Shown here one piece after another: positions 2,654 to 49,111 of a DNA stretch of 64,000 nucleotides (position 1 is the first letter of the stretch; each line of letters begins with the position of its first letter). The position numbers and the translations under genes are program-made. The DNA lies in the IMG/VR virus record IMGVR_UViG_3300025364_000002. One strand, written 5' to 3'. The notes below the pieces were generated by a model. That model made no database searches, was not told the DNA's origin, and worked only from the letters and a program-made list of their open reading frames with translations. The DNA comes from a virus (taxonomy: Duplodnaviria > Heunggongvirae > Uroviricota > Caudoviricetes).

Positions 2654-3877
2654 TCAGTTTTCAAGGTGTTGCAAAACCGTATCGAGGAAGCTGTTTGACC
2701 AACCACCATCAACATGCCGCTTTGACTGAATCCAATCGACAAGACCGCTTACACGGCCCTGGTACTGCTCCATCATCGGCGCCATCCATCCCTTTCGGGC
2801 CTGAACAGCAAGCGCAAACATCTTACGATGCTCCTTGGAGCCCTTCTCATGGATCCAACCCCGACTTTCGTTCCATGCTGCAACCTCTGCAAGACAAGCC
2901 TCGTAAACATCACGATAGTTTGCCACCAGGTCACGGAATGATGCCTGCAACTTGTGTGCCCGATCCACAACGTGGTCCGGGAATAGCGGCAGTGCATCGT
3001 CGAGCTTCTCCAAAAGAAGCAACTCCACGAGTCCCCGAGGAGACTTCAATACCGAGTCACGAACCTTGTTCAGGGCAAGATAGCCGGCATTCTTAATCTT
3101 GATACGGCGAAAATGCTGGTCGCAGACCACAATTCCTTCGTGCTTTATCGGATCACATGAAGAAACAAAATCAACAAGTTCAGAAACTGAACCAAAACGA
3201 TAACGCTCTGCTGTTGGCGTCTTCACCTGAGCTTGAACAAAGGCCGGACGAAGTTCCTTACCTGTTGCCGTTTTGCGAGCAGCAAGCAAAGTAATGCTGT
3301 GTCCTTCATATTCAACAACGATACGATTCGCAGGACTGGTTAATTCAAACATGTAAGTTGTGTCACGAAATAGTTGTGCTGATGTCCACGATTCAAAATC
3401 TTTGCCGACAGTTTCTTCTAATGCTTTCTCAAAAAGGGTGCGAAAAGTATATTCACCAGATCCATCCACTGGAAGGTTTGCTTCTGGCAATGAGCGAGTT
3501 GCAACATGCCATTCATTCTTCACATCATCATAATAAACGATACAAAGCGTTCCGTCCATCTTTTCATAGAAGGAAGTTGCCGGATGATTAAAATCAACTT
3601 CGGCAGCCGCAGACTGTCCATAGTTGAAAAAACGATCAAATGATCGAGCCAATATAACTGTATCACCAATTGGACGAGTCAAATCAATCAACTCTTGAAT
3701 TTTGGTTGGTCGAAGAATAAGACCACGGCACTGCTGTGCCAGTAAGTCATCTTCACGAGATTCAATATGGTCATAGTTCAATGAAAACTTGTACTCGTGC
3801 ACACGAGCTTTGACGCCATGCTCACGCTCCAAGTCTTCAAGAGACTTGGTTTTCAAATACTCACGAACAAAAACCAT
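2654..3877 (-). CDS. ATP-dependent RNA ligase, Rnl1-like (covalent nucleotidyltransferase superfamily)
   Basis: Motif I KxDG (EKMDGT), motif IV EGIVV, motif V KIKN in correct order in a 407-aa protein. Confidence 0.75.
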   Translation of the reverse strand: MVFVREYLKTKSLEDLEREHGVKARVHEYKFSLNYDHIESREDDLLAQQCRGLILRPTKIQELIDLTRPIGDTVILARSFDRFFNYGQSAAAEVDFNHPATSFYEKMDGTLCIVYYDDVKNEWHVATRSLPEANLPVDGSGEYTFRTLFEKALEETVGKDFESWTSAQLFRDTTYMFELTSPANRIVVEYEGHSITLLAARKTATGKELRPAFVQAQVKTPTAERYRFGSVSELVDFVSSCDPIKHEGIVVCDQHFRRIKIKNAGYLALNKVRDSVLKSPRGLVELLLLEKLDDALPLFPDHVVDRAHKLQASFRDLVANYRDVYEACLAEVAAWNESRGWIHEKGSKEHRKMFALAVQARKGWMAPMMEQYQGRVSGLVDWIQSKRHVDGGWSNSFLDTVLQHLEN

Positions 3878-3900
3878 CTATTAGTTTCCTTAAGGTTGAT

Positions 3901-3931
3901 CAAAAATTATAGGGCTCATTTTGAGCCCTAT
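3901..3931 (-). terminator. Rho-independent terminator (hairpin atagggctc-atttt-gagccctat then T-run in minus sense)
   Basis: Hairpin and AATTTTTG read directly between genes 3963..4190 and 2654..3877. Confidence 0.5.
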
Positions 3932-3962
3932 ACCAAGCTTTTTTACTTAGAAAGAATTTGTA

Positions 3963-4190
3963 TTACGATACCATGTTTTCTGTCAAATCCTGAACAGGTC
4001 CCAAGTTAAAGCCTGCCGGGATCAGCAGCTTCTTTCCGGTCAAGACTCGACTCAATTCCAAACGAATTACATTACAACGAACATAATCCTTGCGGTCGCA
4101 AGCATTGATATACGCCTCATTAAGACCATCAATTTGATGGTTGATAGACTCGGGTACATTCCACATATTTTGCTCCAGGTTAGAAGTCAA
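3963..4190 (-). CDS. Hypothetical protein
   Basis: 75-aa ORF. Confidence 0.35.
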   Translation of the reverse strand: MTSNLEQNMWNVPESINHQIDGLNEAYINACDRKDYVRCNVIRLELSRVLTGKKLLIPAGFNLGPVQDLTENMVS

Positions 4191-4228
4191 CTAGTACACA
4201 TCATACAATATCATACCCAGCGTTTGGT

Positions 4229-4477
4229 TTAAACCGTTTGGTAAAACTCCTCAGCAACACAACAATATTGAAAAAATGTTCTTCTGCAAAAGTAGTGGTT
4301 TTTAATTTCCTTCCCCGTCAGGAAAAAACCATCAAATCCATTACCGTCATCATCCCAACAAACATGAGTAAAAAGCACGGGCTCATTGTTGAACCTTCCT
4401 GGCAAAACCAGAAGTTTGCCAATGAACCTACACGGGTTATCATGAAGTGGATTGCTAGTTTGAGACTTGAGTGCCAT
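4229..4477 (-). CDS. Hypothetical protein
   Basis: 82-aa ORF; shares stop/start boundary with the upstream phosphoesterase gene. Confidence 0.35.
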   Translation of the reverse strand: MALKSQTSNPLHDNPCRFIGKLLVLPGRFNNEPVLFTHVCWDDDGNGFDGFFLTGKEIKNHYFCRRTFFQYCCVAEEFYQTV

Positions 4478-5325
4478 TAATCAATCTCAAAAATTTTGTC
4501 AATTGCCGGATGACGATATCGAGCCCTGCCTGTTACACATCGAATATTTGGTGTAATTTGATTATCTGCGCCACCATGTGAGTGACCACAGAGAACTGTG
4601 ATATTTTTATGCTGATATTTATCAGCCACTGCTAAAAGCATGTCGCCCATGTGCCTGGACGAAAAATGAGGCATCCAATCATCATCGGATATTTTGCCGT
4701 CATAAGTAGAGTTTTCTCTAAATGGTGGAACGTGTGTTGCCACAAACACATGATCAAACTTTTTGAAAGCCTCATGAAGTTGCTCTTCAATATACTCGGC
4801 AGCCTCTTTTGCCAATTCGTTAATTTTAGCAAAACGAAGCTCTTTGGTTGGACAAGCACTATCTGCAAGTTCTTTAATGAGCAAATAATCATTCAAATAT
4901 ACTCTACTTTTAAACCAGTTGGCGTATTGCCCATCATACCAACCATCGTGACCAACCAATGCAATTTTTTCCGTGAGAGGAATTACACCAGAAGTATTGA
5001 GCCAGCCAAGACGAGCCTCCAAAATCATCTTGGAGGTTTCATCATAGGTAAAAAGCCTGCCCATTGTTTCACGGACGTTCTCAATGGAGCCGTTATAATA
5101 ATCGTGATTTCCCAAAACAAAGAAAATAGGGCATCTGTGCTCTAGGTTGTAATCCATGAAACCAAGATAATCTACAAGTGATGGTGCTTCGGCAATATCG
5201 CCAGTGATGACGATGGCCGAAGGTTCCTGAGCTTTTATCTTTCGACAAAAGGACTTAATCCCTTCCTCATGAACAAAATTCAAATGGATATCAGTCGCAA
5301 AAAGGAGCTTGAAATTGTCAGTCAT
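4477..5325 (-). CDS. Calcineurin-like metallophosphoesterase
   Basis: Signature D-x-H (ATDIHL), GDxxE (TGDIAE), GNHD(Y) motifs. Confidence 0.8.
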   Translation of the reverse strand: MTDNFKLLFATDIHLNFVHEEGIKSFCRKIKAQEPSAIVITGDIAEAPSLVDYLGFMDYNLEHRCPIFFVLGNHDYYNGSIENVRETMGRLFTYDETSKMILEARLGWLNTSGVIPLTEKIALVGHDGWYDGQYANWFKSRVYLNDYLLIKELADSACPTKELRFAKINELAKEAAEYIEEQLHEAFKKFDHVFVATHVPPFRENSTYDGKISDDDWMPHFSSRHMGDMLLAVADKYQHKNITVLCGHSHGGADNQITPNIRCVTGRARYRHPAIDKIFEID

Positions 5326-13109: not shown

Positions 13110-14525
13110 TTACAATAGTGTTGGAAATAGAACTACATCACGGAGAGTGGTTTGGTTAGTCATAATGGCAACAAATCTGTCCACTCCCATTCCCAAGCCT
13201 GAACAAGGTGGCATGCCATATTCCATGCACTCAAGAAAATCTTCCTCAAGCATCATGGCCTCGTCATCGCCGTCCTCACGGGCAGCCATCTGTTCCTCCA
13301 ACAACTGTCGCTGTAGAACAGCGTCAGTAAGCTCCGTGTAACACTTCACAAGCTCCCAGCCATTGACAATAAACTGCCACTGCTCGACCGTGCGGCCGTC
13401 TTCGCTTCGCTGTGCGAGAGGACTCATGTGAGCCGGGTAATCCTTGAGGAAAATCGGCTGAACAAGGTTTGGCCGCACCTTCTCCTTAAACATTTCGTCG
13501 ATTTCCTTTGCAGAACTCAACGACCAGGGCGAAATTCCAGTATATTGCTCAAATACCGCAGCATAAGACCTTACCGGAGGATCGGTAAAATCAAGCTTGG
13601 TCCCCTGATATTCGACAATCATCCTCTTAATAAGAGGAGAAGCGGGATCGTTTGAATATTCATGACCGGCCGCAAAGAAAAGGTAAGACAAAAGCATCTT
13701 AAACAACTCAAGGTTGTCCATATAACTCATGTAAGCGCCATACCACTCAACCGAGGTAAACTCCTGCAAGTGGGAAGGATCGACCCCTTCATTGCGAAAG
13801 TTCTTTCCGATCTCATACACTCGATCAAAAGAAGCTGCAACAGCACGCTTCAAGTAAGTCTCAGGTGCAATACGAAGATAAAGATCGGCATCCAGTGCAT
13901 GATGATGCGTCTGAAAAGGACGAGCCTGGGCTCCTGAAGCCCGAGTCTGTAAGATCGGGGTTTCCACTTCCATGAAACCGTAGCGCTCCAGAAACTTACG
14001 AAGCTCCGAAACAATCCGAGAACGGGTCACGAAAACCTGCTTCACATCAGGGTTCATGACAATATCAAGGTAACGCTTACGAAGACGTAGCTCCGGATCA
14101 ACAATTCCATCAACCTTATTTGGGAAGGGATGGATTGGATCACGGAGAACCTTGAAAGCACGGTTTACCAAAACCGTCTTCTCGCCAGTAGTGGAAGTCC
14201 ACATTTCACCTTCAATGGTGATAATACTGCCCATCTTTACAGCCTTCATCCACCCCTTGAAGCTTTCGGGGGTTTCACGCTTGTTGAAACAAAACTGAAT
14301 CTTTCCAGACTGATCGACAAGCTTTCCGAAAGCAATGGAGCCAAGTCGTCGAAAATTAACAACCCGACCCGCAAGAGTAACAGCGTGGCCGTCCCTAAGC
14401 TCAAGAGCATTGCTGGCCATCCAAGTTTGGTAGACGCCCTTTTCCACAAACTCCGAAAACTTCGGCTTGCGGACGGTCTCGGCCAACTGTTCAAGAGTAC
14501 CTTCTTCATTACTTAGAGTAGACAT
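13110..14525 (-). CDS. lysS: Lysyl-tRNA synthetase, class II (N-terminal OB anticodon-binding domain plus class IIb catalytic core)
   Basis: Class IIb motif 2 KNFRNEGVD...EFTSVEWYGAY; 471 aa; strong SD (AAGGGAGAGA) upstream. Confidence 0.8.
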   Translation of the reverse strand: MSTLSNEEGTLEQLAETVRKPKFSEFVEKGVYQTWMASNALELRDGHAVTLAGRVVNFRRLGSIAFGKLVDQSGKIQFCFNKRETPESFKGWMKAVKMGSIITIEGEMWTSTTGEKTVLVNRAFKVLRDPIHPFPNKVDGIVDPELRLRKRYLDIVMNPDVKQVFVTRSRIVSELRKFLERYGFMEVETPILQTRASGAQARPFQTHHHALDADLYLRIAPETYLKRAVAASFDRVYEIGKNFRNEGVDPSHLQEFTSVEWYGAYMSYMDNLELFKMLLSYLFFAAGHEYSNDPASPLIKRMIVEYQGTKLDFTDPPVRSYAAVFEQYTGISPWSLSSAKEIDEMFKEKVRPNLVQPIFLKDYPAHMSPLAQRSEDGRTVEQWQFIVNGWELVKCYTELTDAVLQRQLLEEQMAAREDGDDEAMMLEEDFLECMEYGMPPCSGLGMGVDRFVAIMTNQTTLRDVVLFPTLL

Positions 14526-18363: not shown

Positions 18364-18735
18364 TCAAGACTCCAGGTATTTCTCTAGTTCAACCAGAACC
18401 TTGTTGGCAATTTCTTCTGCTGAATCATCTTCAACTTCATCAGCCAACGTAAGCTCATAGAAAACATCATCCCCTCCATGATCAAGGGTGATGTTATACT
18501 TTTCCTCAAGAGAGGAAACCAGCTTGCCAAATTCTTCTGCGAAGAAGATGTTTTCAGGATGATATTGGTTGCTCACAAGCGACCTTTCCTCGATATCATT
18601 CTCATCTTCTTCAGCAAAAGGATTCCATTCGGTCCACAGGACTCGTAGTTTTAGGTTGTGGGTCTGCATCTTATTCTCCCAATACAATTTTGTCGAACGC
18701 TTTACTCTTTTTTGAGGTTGAAGTTGTAGACACAA
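18364..18735 (-). CDS. Acidic hypothetical protein
   Basis: 123-aa ORF rich in D/E. Confidence 0.45.
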   Translation of the reverse strand: MCLQLQPQKRVKRSTKLYWENKMQTHNLKLRVLWTEWNPFAEEDENDIEERSLVSNQYHPENIFFAEEFGKLVSSLEEKYNITLDHGGDDVFYELTLADEVEDDSAEEIANKVLVELEKYLES

Positions 18736-19439
18736 CAGTCAAGTCCAATGGCAACTTCGAGCACCAACAGATCTTTTTCTACAACTTTGTTTTTTGCCTG
18801 AAACTTTGCCCTGATAGGAAAATCAGTTCGCAGAGAAATCGAACAGACCTCCATCCACTTGTCGCCATTATCAACCTCAACATCCATTGTTTTTTGGCTG
18901 TAAGATGGAAGACGGTCAGAAACAACAATTCTAGTTGGCAAATGAACCATTTCTGCAATCATTTTTCGAACAGGTTCTAGCACTGCCGAATGATAGTCAT
19001 TTAGTGTATCTGCTGTAAAAATGCACTGAAATTCCTGCTGATAAAACTCTTTCAGCCGCATGTTTTTGGTAACCTGGTCCTGTTCCCGTCGAAAACTTTT
19101 ACCGGTCTGCCAAACCACAAAAGGTGGGCGAGTTGGCTTTGAAAGTCCCCGGAGTAGATGGGCTGCGTATGCATACGAACCAGGCGTGGTTTCAGGTCGT
19201 AGAACGAGTCCAGGATTTTCCCCTTCTTGAAACCAAACATCCTCACGTGTATAGTTTGGGTTAATCAGAGTTTCAGGAGTAAGGATGGGAGTTTCAACCT
19301 GAAAAAAAGCCCAGGCCGGATTCATTTCGAGCAATGCCGTCTTTAGTTCAGCCAAAAAGTGTTGCTCAAACACTCTTCGTAGTCTGATTTCACGTTCAGA
19401 CCAGAAAATAAGACCGTTGCTGTTGTACAGGCTATCCAT
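18702..19439 (-). CDS. Class IIa aminoacyl-tRNA-synthetase-like catalytic core (truncated paralogue lacking an anticodon-binding domain)
   Basis: Motif-2-like WQTGKSFRREQDQVTKNMRLKEFYQQEFQCIF (fRxE...R..EF.Q.E pattern of the HisRS/ProRS/ThrRS/GlyRS group). Confidence 0.5.
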   Translation of the reverse strand: MDSLYNSNGLIFWSEREIRLRRVFEQHFLAELKTALLEMNPAWAFFQVETPILTPETLINPNYTREDVWFQEGENPGLVLRPETTPGSYAYAAHLLRGLSKPTRPPFVVWQTGKSFRREQDQVTKNMRLKEFYQQEFQCIFTADTLNDYHSAVLEPVRKMIAEMVHLPTRIVVSDRLPSYSQKTMDVEVDNGDKWMEVCSISLRTDFPIRAKFQAKNKVVEKDLLVLEVAIGLDCCVYNFNLKKE

Positions 19440-19749: not shown

Positions 19750-20478
19750 TCAGTTGTATTCTGTTCCGCCCTTACGGGTGAGGTAATCACCGCTAACAGA
19801 CTTTAGCTGAACACGGCCAATTTCTTCGCTCCAGCGTTCTACCGTAGGTCGAACAACAACACCCTCACGGATATGCATTTCCTTACCGGAAATAGTCTCG
19901 AAGCCGTCAGTGTACTCGTACAAAACCTTCTTCGAGAAGGGCCCACGGTAAAGCACCGGAACACGCTGAAGACCAAGTCTCTTGCAAGCCGCATCAAGCT
20001 CAGAGTCGTTCAAATAACTGCCAGACCCTGGACGTCCAACATAAATATCAAATACTCTAAAACCGATCTCGACGTCCTTGTCGGCAGAACTGCCATAAGA
20101 AAGGTCCTGAACACCACGTCCAAAAATCTCTCCAAGAACGTAAACCGGCTGTGGATCGAAATCGTGTTTTAGCTGATGACCAAAAGCAAATGAAATACGG
20201 TTGTCCATGTTGTAGTGTCGAGCGACACGCACGTATAGATTCGTCTTGTTGGCTTCGGCATCATACTTCATCGCCAGTCCACGAGCCGAAAGACCCTTGG
20301 ATGAGATAATGAGACGGCCCTCCTCGGGATGGGCATCCCTCGGCGGCATAAGGCCAATCATACACCAGGTGTTATGAACAACAATGCCTTCAGCAATATA
20401 GTTGTTGTTGCCACCATCAATCTCTAAATCATAGAGATCACTATCACTTTCAACATACTCAATCTTAACACAGCGCAT
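19750..20478 (-). CDS. C-terminal half of a fractured Rnl2/Rnl5-family RNA ligase: 36-aa IntC (split-intein C fragment) followed by the C-extein
   Basis: N-terminus MRCVKIEYVESDSDLYDLEIDGGNNNYIAEGIVVHN|T is intein blocks F/G ending HN plus nucleophile T. The extein carries ligase motif III VYVLGEIFG, motif IV EGVVVR and motif V LKSVS. It is in the same frame as ORF 20773..21567. Confidence 0.8.
   Translation of the reverse strand: MRCVKIEYVESDSDLYDLEIDGGNNNYIAEGIVVHNTWCMIGLMPPRDAHPEEGRLIISSKGLSARGLAMKYDAEANKTNLYVRVARHYNMDNRISFAFGHQLKHDFDPQPVYVLGEIFGRGVQDLSYGSSADKDVEIGFRVFDIYVGRPGSGSYLNDSELDAACKRLGLQRVPVLYRGPFSKKVLYEYTDGFETISGKEMHIREGVVVRPTVERWSEEIGRVQLKSVSGDYLTRKGGTEYN
20371..20478 (-). other. 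IntC, split-intein C-terminal fragment (36 aa)
   Basis: Length and sequence style match natural IntC fragments (e.g. DnaE IntC, 36 aa, ending ...N). Confidence 0.75.
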
Positions 20479-20764
20479 TTTTTACTCTTTCTATCGTTTT
20501 TTCTTTTTGATTGTTCCAATCACTTTCCCAAACAATTAGAACTTTGTACCCTCTTTTGAGCAAGGCGGCGGTGCGCCTTTTATCTCTTTTCCATTGTTGC
20601 CCAACAGTCCTGGAAATCCAAGAGCAATATTCGCTTGGGTCGTGAAATTTTGTTGGATTACAATGGAACATATCTCCATAGAATTCCAAGATAACTTTCT
20701 CACTTTTCAACAAGCCGTCTACGATAAACCCTGATATAATTTCTTCACGATTTGACGCCTGCAT
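20465..20764 (-). CDS. Free-standing Vsr-like (very-short-patch-repair fold) homing endonuclease inserted between the intein halves
   Basis: FYGDMFHCNP...WKRDKRRTAALLKRGYKVLIVWESD parallels the Vsr FxDGCFWHxH...RDxxxxxxLxxxGWxVLxVWE pattern; different frame from the flanking exteins. Confidence 0.65.
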   Translation of the reverse strand: MQASNREEIISGFIVDGLLKSEKVILEFYGDMFHCNPTKFHDPSEYCSWISRTVGQQWKRDKRRTAALLKRGYKVLIVWESDWNNQKEKTIERVKNALC

Positions 20765-20772
20765 GGGACTTG

Positions 20773-21567
20773 CTACATGATTGGACTTTCAATATCTTCA
20801 TCAGGCAAAAGTTTGCCAGCTTCCACCCACATTTGTCGGTCACGTGAATAAACGGGGTGATCCTCGGTTAAGGTGAGAGTAGAACCGTTTTCTAAGGTAA
20901 GCTTTACCCATTTTTTATCTTCACTGTTTAGCCGACGCATGCGACCAGTAATAGGTCGCTCAATATATTCCTTGCTTTGTTCATTATAAGATAAAACCGA
21001 CTGAATTGTTTTATCAGCCACTACTTCTGCGATAGACCGCTCGCTTCCATCTACAAGTCGGACCATACTTGCTTCATGCAAGCATCCATGAAGTTTCTCA
21101 GTGAAAACAACCTCTTCACCTTCCTCAAGAATGTGAGGAAAACGCTTAAAATTTTCGATATCGTACTTCAAGGTACGGTCCTGACCAGCAGCGAACACCT
21201 CACCGGAAAGATGGGCCGGAATTGGAGGCTCCCACTTGGTAATTCCAAGAATATTAGCAACATCAGCACCCTCTTGCCACTCAGGACGTGCAGGATACAC
21301 AAGTCCCTGTGAAAGGATGCCACGAAGACGAATGGCCTTTACACGATTCTTTGCCTTTCCGGCAAGCTTACCCTCAAGACCCATTTCACGGAGGAGAGCC
21401 TGAGGAACGACAGCCTGTTCTGGAATGTAGGCAACGAGATCACCGCTCTTAAACTGGTCCTTGCGGACAATTGCTTGGTAATCGCCCACCTGGGCGAGTT
21501 CTAAAGCATCAGCATTGGGGTGTTCAAGAACAGTAATCCGTTCGACAGTTACAGAAAAAGTTGACAT
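20773..21567 (-). CDS. N-terminal half of the fractured RNA ligase: OB-like N-domain, then the nucleotidyltransferase motif I, then a 103-aa IntN
   Basis: ...FTEKLHG|CLHEASMVRLVDGSE...TLTLTEDHPVY...LLPDEDIESPIM*. KxHG is the ligase lysine-adenylylation motif. C1 plus TxxH (block B) is an intein N-fragment. The stop codon directly follows IntN. Confidence 0.8.
   Translation of the reverse strand: MSTFSVTVERITVLEHPNADALELAQVGDYQAIVRKDQFKSGDLVAYIPEQAVVPQALLREMGLEGKLAGKAKNRVKAIRLRGILSQGLVYPARPEWQEGADVANILGITKWEPPIPAHLSGEVFAAGQDRTLKYDIENFKRFPHILEEGEEVVFTEKLHGCLHEASMVRLVDGSERSIAEVVADKTIQSVLSYNEQSKEYIERPITGRMRRLNSEDKKWVKLTLENGSTLTLTEDHPVYSRDRQMWVEAGKLLPDEDIESPIM
20776..21084 (-). other. IntN, split-intein N-terminal fragment (103 aa)
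   Basis: Begins with Cys after KLHG; has block A (CLHEASMV) and block B (TLTLTEDHP). Confidence 0.75.
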
Positions 21568-26701: not shown

Positions 26702-26723
26702 GACAAGTCTTCGTTGAGGTTAA

Positions 26724-26807
26724 TACCCAGGGTGGGACTCGAACCCACAAGGGCTTGCGCCCGGAAGATTTTGAATCTCCTACGTATGCCAATTCCGTCA
26801 CCTGGGC
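26724..26807 (-). tRNA. tRNA-Leu(CAA), type II with long variable arm
   Basis: Cloverleaf folded by hand: acceptor GCCCAGG/CCTGGGT, anticodon stem GGAGA/TCTTC with loop TTCAAAA (anticodon CAA), variable arm CGGGCGCAAGCCCTTG, T-arm GTGGG-TTCGAGT-CCCAC, discriminator A; 84 nt, CCA not encoded. Confidence 0.8.
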
Positions 26808-26810
26808 ATG

Positions 26811-45883: not shown

Positions 45884-46309
45884 CTAAGCAACATATACTA
45901 AACCATAATATTTGCCGACAGTTCTCTTGAACTTCCATTCGCCAAGCAAAACTCCATAAGTGCAGGCAGACTTTTGAAGAGCATGGAGAAAATCGGAATC
46001 ACGAATATAAAACAACTGTTTCGTTTCTGTATGTTCCAGAATTAACTGAGTGGTGGAATTGCAACTAATAAATCGTTCAACTTTGAAAGCGGCTTTGAAT
46101 GGAGAATTATCTTTCCAGGTGACATTTAGATTATTATATCTTTTTCTGTTGACATAGTCAAAGTAACTAACGACGGAAACGTTCTTACCGCACGTCCACG
46201 GGACTCCCTTTTGGGTCCATGGGATTTGATAATCTTCACTTTTTTTATTCATTTGTTTCGAGCTGCCCCCTAACCATCCTATCTTTTCGACCTTTATATT
46301 TTCGGTCAT
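45884..46309 (-). CDS. Paralogue family member A (family defined in this window: ...KPFKAxF...LLGEWxFKR...)
   Basis: Shares SPFKAAFKVERF...GVLLGEWKFKRTVGKYYGLVYVA with 49740..50144 and 50125..50535. Confidence 0.5.
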   Translation of the reverse strand: MTENIKVEKIGWLGGSSKQMNKKSEDYQIPWTQKGVPWTCGKNVSVVSYFDYVNRKRYNNLNVTWKDNSPFKAAFKVERFISCNSTTQLILEHTETKQLFYIRDSDFLHALQKSACTYGVLLGEWKFKRTVGKYYGLVYVA

Positions 46310-47165
46310 AGGATTCTAACTGACGCAAATCCAAATTTGCATCCTTGCTTTTCATTGTTCCACCGCTCAGAAACAATTCAATCATTCTATCCTTTGTAAG
46401 AATTTTGGTTGTTTTGTCATCTTTCGAGGGACCCCATCCAAGCCTTGCCAAGAAATTAAGCATTGCATCAGGATCATATCCACTGTCAATATACAATTGA
46501 AATGTTGAAGCTTGTTCTCTTTTTGAGAGTTTTTTTCCCTGATGACGCAAAAGTCCAACGTGACTATATTTTGGCAAAACGCCGCCAAGGAGGTCATACA
46601 ACAAAACCTGCTTTGCTGTATTTGTAATGTGGTCCACGCCTCGAATTATATGATTGATGTCCATTTCAATATCATCAACTACAGAAGCAAAATGATAAGT
46701 GGGACTACCGTCAGATTTGATCAATGTTAGATTATCAAACCCCCGAACATTGTCCGCCCGAATGGGAATGTTGCCAGCAATATCATCAACCCAATAACTT
46801 CTGGAAAGAAAATCACCAACAAGATTTAAATGAACTCGCTTACCATCTCGAACGGCTTTGCCACTGTCTACCAGAAACGACACGGCAGCATCATAATGCT
46901 CCATTCTTTTACTCTGGTAGTCTAAACCATCCCAATCAAGCCCAAGCCACTCAAGGCTTTTCAAAAATTGGTCAGCCCATCTCTGCTCTGACCTTTCAAG
47001 ATCGGTGTCATCAATCCTAACAAAAAACTTACCACCAGAAGCTCTGGCGGCAAGCCAATTGAAATAAGCAGTTCTCATTGTACCCAAATGAGTAGGGCCT
47101 GTAGGTGAAGGTGCGATTCTAGTAAAAAACTTCATATTGCGCCACTTTGTCCAAAAAATGTCCAA
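46245..47165 (-). CDS. Truncated class-I glutamyl-tRNA-synthetase catalytic core, glutamyl-Q tRNA(Asp) synthetase (YadB/GluQ)-like
   Basis: HIGH-region RIAPSPTGPTHLGTMRTA and KMSKS-like KLSKR; 306 aa with no anticodon-binding domain. Confidence 0.7.
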   Translation of the reverse strand: MDIFWTKWRNMKFFTRIAPSPTGPTHLGTMRTAYFNWLAARASGGKFFVRIDDTDLERSEQRWADQFLKSLEWLGLDWDGLDYQSKRMEHYDAAVSFLVDSGKAVRDGKRVHLNLVGDFLSRSYWVDDIAGNIPIRADNVRGFDNLTLIKSDGSPTYHFASVVDDIEMDINHIIRGVDHITNTAKQVLLYDLLGGVLPKYSHVGLLRHQGKKLSKREQASTFQLYIDSGYDPDAMLNFLARLGWGPSKDDKTTKILTKDRMIELFLSGGTMKSKDANLDLRQLESYDRKYKGRKDRMVRGQLETNE

Positions 47166-48387: not shown

Positions 48388-48422
48388 TTTTTTTGCTTTC
48401 CAATTTGTTTCATCTTTTTAGC

Positions 48423-48496
48423 GAGACCTGTGGGATTTGAACCCACATCACTCCGGGTTAAAGCCGGCCGCATTACCAATTTTCTGCCAAGGTCCC
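48423..48496 (-). tRNA. tRNA with anticodon UUA (ochre-type suppressor tRNA; type I, 74 nt)
   Basis: Hand-folded: acceptor GGGACCT/AGGTCTC (one G-U), U8, D-loop with GG, anticodon stem CCGG/CCGG with 7-nt loop C-U-U-U-A-A-C (U33, anticodon UUA, A37), 5-nt variable loop, T-arm GTGGG-TTCAAAT-CCCAC, discriminator G. Confidence 0.65.
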
Positions 48497-48501
48497 ATTT
48501 G

Positions 48502-48575
48502 TGGCCGCCCCAGGAGTCGAACCTGGCTGTCCCACGACTGACGACCAAACTGTCCTATCTGCTTTGACGGGTCCT
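48502..48575 (-). tRNA. tRNA-like element: canonical T-arm (CCAGG-TTCGACT-CCTGG) plus 7-bp acceptor-like helix (GGTCGTC/GGCGGCC), discriminator A; D and anticodon arms not resolvable (possible mini-helix or degenerate tRNA)
   Basis: Reverse complement folded by hand; only a 45-nt acceptor/T minihelix closes cleanly. Confidence 0.3.
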
Positions 48576-48624
48576 TCCCCCGTTTCTATGGCCACTTGAA
48601 CTAACAACATTTCATAATCTCATG

Positions 48625-48700
48625 GAAGCCACACACTTCCAGCAGGAATTGAACCTGCGCCGGGAACACTTGCCACTGTCGCCGAGCCAACTACTAGTTG
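48625..48700 (-). tRNA. tRNA-like element: T-arm-like hairpin GCAGG-TTCAATT-CCTGC followed by a second hairpin GGAAG-tgtgtgg-CTTCC; no acceptor pairing found
   Basis: Read directly; may be a tRNA remnant or an unrelated structured RNA. Confidence 0.2.
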
Positions 48701-48754
48701 TTATGTACGTCATATCGCCGTGCGGCAAAAACAGATAGGAACAGAACTTGTATG

Positions 48755-49111
48755 CTAACTTGTTATTTTTTTGTAACCCCTTCCTGCTACTTTCAAGTTT
48801 GCGCAAAGTTTAGCAGTTGCTTCACTTGGCTCGATTGTCAAGGCTGTGTACTGATTGATATCAGGCTCATAGAAAAGTGAATGCCTTAGTCCCTGGCTTT
48901 CGGTCAAGCAAACAAATGCCTTCAATGCCGCTTCGTTTTTAACTCCCAAAACTACAATGGTGTTTGAATTAGTATACCACTTTCGCTCCTCTTCGGGGAA
49001 GTCGTGTGTAAACTGATCCTTGGCATGAATGCTTTGTGCGATTTGATAGCCAGGCGAAATGTCCTGGCGAACCAATACATACATTTTCATTGTTGGTTGA
49101 CTTTGCATCAT
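48755..49111 (-). CDS. Hypothetical protein
   Basis: 118-aa ORF. Confidence 0.45.
   Translation of the reverse strand: MMQSQPTMKMYVLVRQDISPGYQIAQSIHAKDQFTHDFPEEERKWYTNSNTIVVLGVKNEAALKAFVCLTESQGLRHSLFYEPDINQYTALTIEPSEATAKLCANLKVAGRGYKKITS

Follow-up and report, generated by a model that had tools for sequence, protein, structure and literature searches.

Why would a phage that ends many of its own genes with TAA carry a tRNA whose anticodon pairs with that codon? The question is raised by a minus-strand tRNA gene with anticodon UUA in the 64-kb stretch of phage DNA analysed here, which we call the window (Table 1). ARAGORN reported the gene as tRNA-Stop with anticodon tta at 48421-48496 on the minus strand, and Rfam RF00005 covered 48422-48496 end to end (model positions 1-71) with 54.4 bits and an E-value of 6e-9, the gathering score being 29 bits. 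The minus-strand sequence over 48422-48496 is GGGACCUUGGCAGAAAAUUGGUAAUGCGGCCGGCUUUAACCCGGAGUGAUGUGGGUUCAAAUCCCACAGGUCUCG, 75 nt with the discriminator G counted in. Read from this sequence and from the Rfam alignment, the tRNA is a type-I cloverleaf. Its 7-bp acceptor stem (GGGACCU/AGGUCUC) includes G2.U71. The anticodon stem (GCCGG/CCGGA) consists of four Watson-Crick pairs (CCGG/CCGG) and a G27.A43 mismatch, and encloses a 7-nt loop, C32-U33-U34-U35-A36-A37-C38, in which U33 and A37 are present. The variable loop is 5 nt long and the T-arm is GUGGG-UUCAAAU-CCCAC. The tertiary nucleotides U8, A14, G18G19 (in the D-arm), U54-U55-C56 and A58 are all in place, and no CCA end is encoded. These results bear out the original prediction of a minus-strand type-I tRNA with anticodon UUA, including its loop C-U-U-U-A-A-C, its CCGG/CCGG stem, U33 and A37. 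The predicted locus also stood; its length of 74 nt (48423-48496) did not, since it omitted the discriminator base at 48422, a difference of one base. At default settings, no tRNA finder gave another anticodon register or a pseudogene call.

Table 1. Positions of the UUA tRNA genes and of the neighbouring features; coordinates without a locus label are those of the window.
Feature	Coordinates	Strand	Basis or remark
tRNA gene, anticodon UUA, 'type A' of the clade	48422..48496	minus	ARAGORN, Rfam RF00005, sequence
Anticodon 5'-UUA-3' (tRNA positions 34-36)	48459..48461	minus	Sequence and ARAGORN
Candidate conserved structured non-coding RNA, 249 nt, between Pth2 and the tRNA	48497..48745	minus	
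Pth2-type peptidyl-tRNA hydrolase	48755..49111	minus	Pfam PF01981, 35.5 bits against a cut-off of 23
GluRS catalytic core, 296 aa from ATG, without an anticodon-binding domain	46245..47135	minus	Pfam tRNA-synt_1c
Class II lysyl-tRNA synthetase, full-length, with OB-fold anticodon-binding domain	13110..14525	minus	Pfam
Class IIa aminoacyl-tRNA synthetase core, 245 aa, without an anticodon-binding domain	18702-19439	minus	Weak GlyRS/HisRS-like matches
Phage tmRNA, tag ADNAPLALAA	53940..54294	minus	ARAGORN; Rfam RF00023, 127 bits
T4 Rnl1-like RNA ligase adjoining a calcineurin-like metallophosphoesterase, with a NUDIX protein nearby	2654-5325	minus	
Rnl2-type RNA ligase, apparently intein-interrupted	19750-21567	minus	
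tRNA-Leu(CAA), sole other tRNA gene of the 64-kb window	26723-26808	minus	
Type A UUA tRNA	Window; L020 5638-5712; L023 5034-5108		Unusual D-arm GCAGA...AAUGC
Type B UUA tRNA	L019, L020, L023, L025, L026		Generic body UAGCUCAG..GGCAGAGC
Type C UUA tRNA	L026		Further variant

The DNA comes from a huge phage with a genome of about 461 kb. This follows from metagenomic contigs of up to 461 kb that carry a neighbouring protein with 100% identity, from the gene organization of the window (about 95% coding, with small, tightly packed genes almost all on the minus strand), from the matches of its large ORFs to phage protein families (PHROG), and from relatives of the neighbouring protein on IMG/VR viral contigs. 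Together with 10-kb flanks on either side, the window gave us about 84 kb of this genome, in which there was no capsid, terminase, or other structural or lysis gene.

We then asked how far the UUA tRNA extends beyond the window. Relatives' loci were fetched around homologues of the GluRS core at 83%, 71%, 66%, 65% and 60% identity, and every one of them contained one or two UUA tRNAs. Altogether, nine distinct UUA tRNA genes were found in six diverged genomes (the window, L019, L020-22, L023, L025 and L026), and they sort into two or three sequence families. All copies scored above the Rfam threshold (39.3-66.4 bits). In the alignment of the nine, loop positions 32-37 (C-U-U-U-A-A) are invariant, whereas 12 of the 20 stem pairs show double compensatory changes. 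One of the type A copies, that of L023, reads A19-U56 in place of the tertiary pair G19-C56, and two relatives' copies encode the 3' CCA. The motif A36-A37-A38, which is typical of tRNAs reading codons that begin with U, is present in seven of the nine. The alignment indicates that the UUA anticodon and the tRNA fold are under purifying selection; because the same anticodon loop recurs in nine diverged homologous genes with compensatory stem changes, the UUA tRNA also lies far beyond chance. Outside these loci, megablast of the tRNA region against GenBank phages gave no match. An exact-pattern search of IMG/VR with the anticodon arm gave a single hit, which we rejected as a chance match in high-GC coding DNA without a tRNA, and IMG/VR pattern scans for the T-arm plus acceptor, for degenerate type A and type B patterns and for the core of the RNA element described below found nothing, from which we took the clade to be missing from IMG/VR.

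Directly upstream of the tRNA, and ending 4 nt before it, lies a candidate structured RNA that is also present at L020 5385-5637, at L026 3313-3572 and in part at L023 2216-2420. A 62-nt core of this element is identical in L020, where the proteins are about 71% identical. The predicted fold consists of a closing helix of 17 bp, four pairs of which covary, and of internal hairpins, one of which is T-arm-like. The 3' end is predicted to form a tRNA-like minihelix, with an 8-bp acceptor-like stem, a small D-like hairpin and a T-arm but no anticodon arm, and in L020 this minihelix ends in ACCA. Overall, 93.6% of cells were paired in this fold compared with about 41% in slid controls, and 15 covarying pairs were counted compared with 0-3 in the controls; the folding z-score was -3.18. 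No Rfam family matched the element. Pth2 is the conserved upstream neighbour of the element and the tRNA, the order being kept in L020-L023 and L026, and the element is probably co-transcribed with the tRNA. In L026 there is an element with no tRNA after it. Our reading of the element is provisional, since it draws on three distinct full-length sequences.

The conservation bears on whether the gene could be a decaying sense tRNA for Lys (UUU), Glu (UUC) or Gln (UUG), mutated at position 36 within a degrading tRNA cluster. UUA is indeed one substitution away from each of these three anticodons, and the window copy has the G27.A43 mismatch and G2.U71. With relaxed thresholds, ARAGORN also flagged two 'possible pseudogene' tRNA-like elements just upstream of the tRNA. 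These, however, fall in the highly conserved structured RNA, and we rejected them as decayed tRNAs. Moreover, six genomes keep UUA in nine diverged genes, which belong to two or three families and show compensatory stem changes. Purifying selection on both anticodon and fold excludes a mutation of recent date as well as a pseudogene, and decay, which we now find barely credible, is effectively refuted by the conservation.

The next question is whether TAA is recoded or read through in this clade. Both release factors, RF1 and RF2, read UAA; for this reason ochre suppression is expected to be weaker, and reassignment of UAA to be harder, than for a codon read by a single release factor. The original prediction held that the code is standard, without global recoding, and proposed a survey of stop-codon usage. 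In the window TAA ends 48 of the 121 minus-strand genes (about 40%), in agreement with the expectation from composition, and it accounts for 30-48% of gene ends in the relatives' loci. TAA is a frequent real stop in both. If a stop codon is recoded, coding density should rise clearly (by 5-10% or more) when it is read as sense. For TAA, the change was at most about 3.5 percentage points in each of seven stretches, namely the five relatives' loci (about 65 kb) and the two 10-kb flanks of the window. No in-frame TAA was found inside conserved genes in the 84 kb of the 461-kb genome or in the 65 kb of relatives. None of the signs of a recoded stop, whether an in-frame stop, a density gain or rarity as a terminator, was seen for TAA in the sampled DNA, and the code is standard throughout the approximately 150 kb of clade DNA covered. 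No release factor was detected among the approximately 50 of about 121 window ORFs that were scanned or in the precomputed Pfam annotation of the neighbouring loci.

The roles offered in the original prediction, regulated readthrough of particular genes or action against the host, stay proposals; a search of the window, its two 10-kb flanks and the 65 kb of relatives turned up no readthrough target. A non-TAA backup stop within ten codons follows 42% of the TAA genes of the window, compared with 32-40% for the other two stops, so backup stops are not enriched after TAA. This would be odd if suppression were appreciable. Pairs of ORFs in the same frame with a single stop between them are no more frequent for TAA (three) than for TAG (three) or TGA (four) in the window. 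In each of the three TAA cases the second gene comes with a ribosome-binding site and a start codon of its own, and for one of these second genes the match to a PHROG family begins at the first residues. We therefore rejected the three junctions as readthrough sites and regard them as ordinary neighbouring genes.

One way to reconcile a conserved stop anticodon with these results is stage-specific recoding, in which the UUA tRNAs would reassign TAA in late (structural or lysis) genes within the unsampled approximately 380 kb, where genes of these kinds probably lie. The strong multi-copy conservation of the anticodon and the anticodon-blind synthetase cores encoded nearby would fit this idea, as would the lack of structural and lysis genes from the DNA seen so far; in recoded phages, the early regions still follow the standard code (10.1101/2021.08.26.457843). 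Nevertheless, the frequency of TAA as a real stop in the window and in the relatives is hard to square with known cases, where recoded stops are depleted. The small density gain at every locus also argues against it, and among the more than 10,000 jumbo phage genomes of a published survey there was no case of TAA recoding (PMC13037316). We consider late recoding quite improbable.

Which amino acid the tRNA would carry was approached through its ancestry and through the synthetases encoded in the window. In a more distant IMG/VR relative (L002 9515-9768), three tRNA-Glu genes (UUC, CUC, UUC) lie directly upstream of the GluRS-core homologue, in the position held by UUA tRNAs in the clade of the window. 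This arrangement, together with the location of the UUA tRNA near the GluRS core, suggested glutamate. A tRNA-Glu origin was not supported, as the D-arm differs from that of the L002 tRNA-Glu and the body, too, is unlike tRNA-Glu. The acceptor stem of type B was dismissed as a Glu-like sign, being also typical of bacterial tRNA-Thr; the 5' half of type B is exactly common to bacterial Thr, Met, Val, Lys and Ala tRNAs. Gln ancestry was rejected because the UUA tRNAs have G1-C72 whereas the phage's own tRNA-Gln has U1-A72. When the anticodon was masked, identity gave no clear winner among the parent isotypes, and BLAST against annotated phage and E. coli tRNAs returned mixed Arg, Lys, Ile, Met and Thr neighbours.

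Among the synthetases, one candidate for charging the tRNA is the GluRS core, which lies about 1.3 kb downstream of it. This core matches NCBIfam gltX_bact with 263 bits, up to about profile position 315 of 470, and its similarity to solved GluRS structures (E 7e-55) exceeds that to GluQRS (E 7e-26). Both the HLG and the KLSKR motif are retained and the insertion region is shortened; the core looks catalytically intact. The top homologues all have about 280-365 aa and form a large family on contigs of up to 570 kb (huge phages). A 141-aa ORF overlapping the end of the core was considered as the missing anticodon-binding domain and rejected, as it had no Pfam match. Since it has no such domain, the core could in principle charge a tRNA of any anticodon. 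We rejected the idea that UUA tRNAs generally accompany the GluRS core, because the more distant GluRS-core loci (L003, L004, L012 and L027-L029) have no UUA tRNA within 10 kb. The lysyl-tRNA synthetase, about 38% identical to bacterial LysRS and scoring 451 bits against the NCBIfam lysine--tRNA ligase model (just below the cut-off of 468), is a second candidate, as a single change separates UUA from the Lys anticodon UUU. The class IIa core belongs to a family labelled glycyl-tRNA synthetase by JGI, with 60-95% identity among the top 120 members. Its members are found widely among the contigs of huge phages (up to 561 kb), and a specific tie to the UUA tRNA was rejected for this reason. A bolder scheme would have the UUA tRNAs form orthogonal pairs with the anticodon-blind cores (the GluRS core and possibly the 245-aa class IIa core) and decode TAA in a subset of late genes in the unsampled 380 kb. 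We hold this to be very improbable; if true, it would give the first known case of ochre-codon reassignment in a phage and, more widely, in a bacterial-type system.

The UUA tRNA sits within an island of translation and RNA-metabolism genes of the window. The tmRNA is kept in relatives a few kilobases from the UUA tRNA (L021 1045-1399 and L025 509-862), with the tags ANEAPLALAA and ATNEASYALAA, and could rescue ribosomes that reach the end of an mRNA by readthrough. The Rnl1-like ligase, the metallophosphoesterase and the NUDIX protein form a group that resembles a tRNA-repair gene set. In the Rnl2-type ligase, the upstream ORF holds an OB-fold and the N-terminal part of a Hint domain and the downstream ORF holds the C-terminal part of the intein and the RNA_ligase domain, with a 99-aa ORF (20465-20764) between the two parts. 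An Rv2179c-like 3'-5' exoribonuclease and a sigma factor are also encoded in the island.

Such a neighbourhood would also suit a role off the ribosome, with the UUA tRNAs acting as decoys for host anticodon nucleases that attack UUN tRNAs, or as dedicated carriers that the GluRS core would charge for aminoacyl transfer off the ribosome. A stop anticodon would keep these tRNAs out of sense decoding, the TAA-ended genes of the phage lack adaptation to suppression, and the two RNA ligases and the metallophosphoesterase are RNA-repair genes; the GluRS core without its anticodon-binding domain, the tRNA-like structured RNA and Pth2 nearby point in the same direction. By contrast, all copies retain full elongator features (7-nt loop, U33, A37, G18G19, T-loop and normal stems), and codon reading is the simplest reason why the three anticodon bases do not vary between families. 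We have no candidate for the transferase, and the GluRS-core phages outside the clade show that the link to this enzyme is not general. We therefore regard an off-ribosome role as unlikely.

The reading that we favour as the probable one is that this is a functional phage tRNA gene with a selected UUA anticodon, belonging to one of two to three paralogous families in a clade of standard-code huge phages, and that it acts as an ochre-type suppressor. The gene would be transcribed with its neighbours, namely Pth2, the upstream structured RNA and small ORFs. RNase P and 3' trimming would then release the tRNA, a CCA-adding enzyme would supply its CCA end, and some synthetase would aminoacylate it. 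The charged tRNA would pair with UAA (and weakly with UAG) in competition with RF1 and RF2, and the outcome would be partial readthrough with no change of the code. As TAA ends about 40% of the genes, no protective backup stops follow it and the phage's TAA genes are not adapted to suppression, suppression is probably weak or limited to one infection stage. The benefit would then probably come from one or a few targets outside the sampled DNA or from disturbed host termination. With a tmRNA and a peptidyl-tRNA hydrolase of its own, the phage would keep the collateral cost down.

Ochre suppressors are familiar from the laboratory, where supB (Gln) and supG/supL (Lys) of E. coli and the psu ochre suppressors of T4 acquired UUA through one substitution from a UUN sense anticodon and read UAA and, weakly, UAG. 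Those are single selected mutations, whereas here UUA is naturally fixed and conserved. UUA suppressor tRNAs in large phages are already known: tRNA-Sup(UUA) has been annotated, with its function unknown, in the Klebsiella jumbo phage phiKp24 (PMC8386662) and in the Bacillus megaphage G (PMC12484599). Both resemble our phage in having a UUA tRNA in a large standard-code genome. What is added here is the clade-wide conservation, the two to three paralogous families and a defined neighbourhood of Pth2, structured RNA and GluRS core. Other standard-code jumbo phages carry suppressors for stop codons other than UAA, with the anticodons CUA in XacN1 (two copies; PMC5852040) and RsoM2USA (PMC8504454) and UCA in Atu_ph07 (PMC6102473), and as in our phage the cognate stop codon is still used as a terminator; in XacN1, an in-silico readthrough analysis gave no target (PMC5852040). 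Recoded phages, which read TAG as Gln (Lak and crAss-like phages) or TGA as Trp with the help of suppressor tRNAs (10.1101/2021.08.26.457843), resemble ours in that a large phage, equipped with translation genes of its own, encodes a suppressor tRNA. They differ in having in-frame recoded stops in late genes and a codon depleted as terminator, neither of which is seen here. Recoding of TAA is unreported in phages, including the jumbo phage survey cited above (PMC13037316).

Suppressor tRNAs in standard-code jumbo phages have been a repeatedly noted puzzle, and the clade described here gives a clean comparative handle on it. With UUA under selection in paralogues and TAA a common terminator, both a recent mutation and genome-wide recoding are excluded for the sampled DNA. 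Identified targets or an identified charging enzyme would tell whether the tRNA serves programmed readthrough, host takeover or a first step to TAA reassignment. Genetic-code engineers, too, would have an interest in natural tRNAs that read UAA and have a dedicated synthetase.

In the region around the window, tRNA genes are scattered singly and not clustered: a tRNA-Ser for which ARAGORN gives the unusual anticodon ACU lies about 9 kb past the high-coordinate end of the window (L104 966-1046), and the flanks also hold a tRNA-Pro(UGG) (L104 8294-8366) and a tRNA-Gln(CUG) (L103 18382-18455). The distant GluRS-core huge phages L027 and L029 have large tRNA arrays together with EF-Tu, RRF, SmpB, a Ro60-like protein and IleRS. 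The regions with tRNA arrays or translation genes are L027 6291-6761 and 12843-14549 and L029 1-5200 and 6832-8004, the array in L029 comprising 17 tRNA genes in 5 kb.
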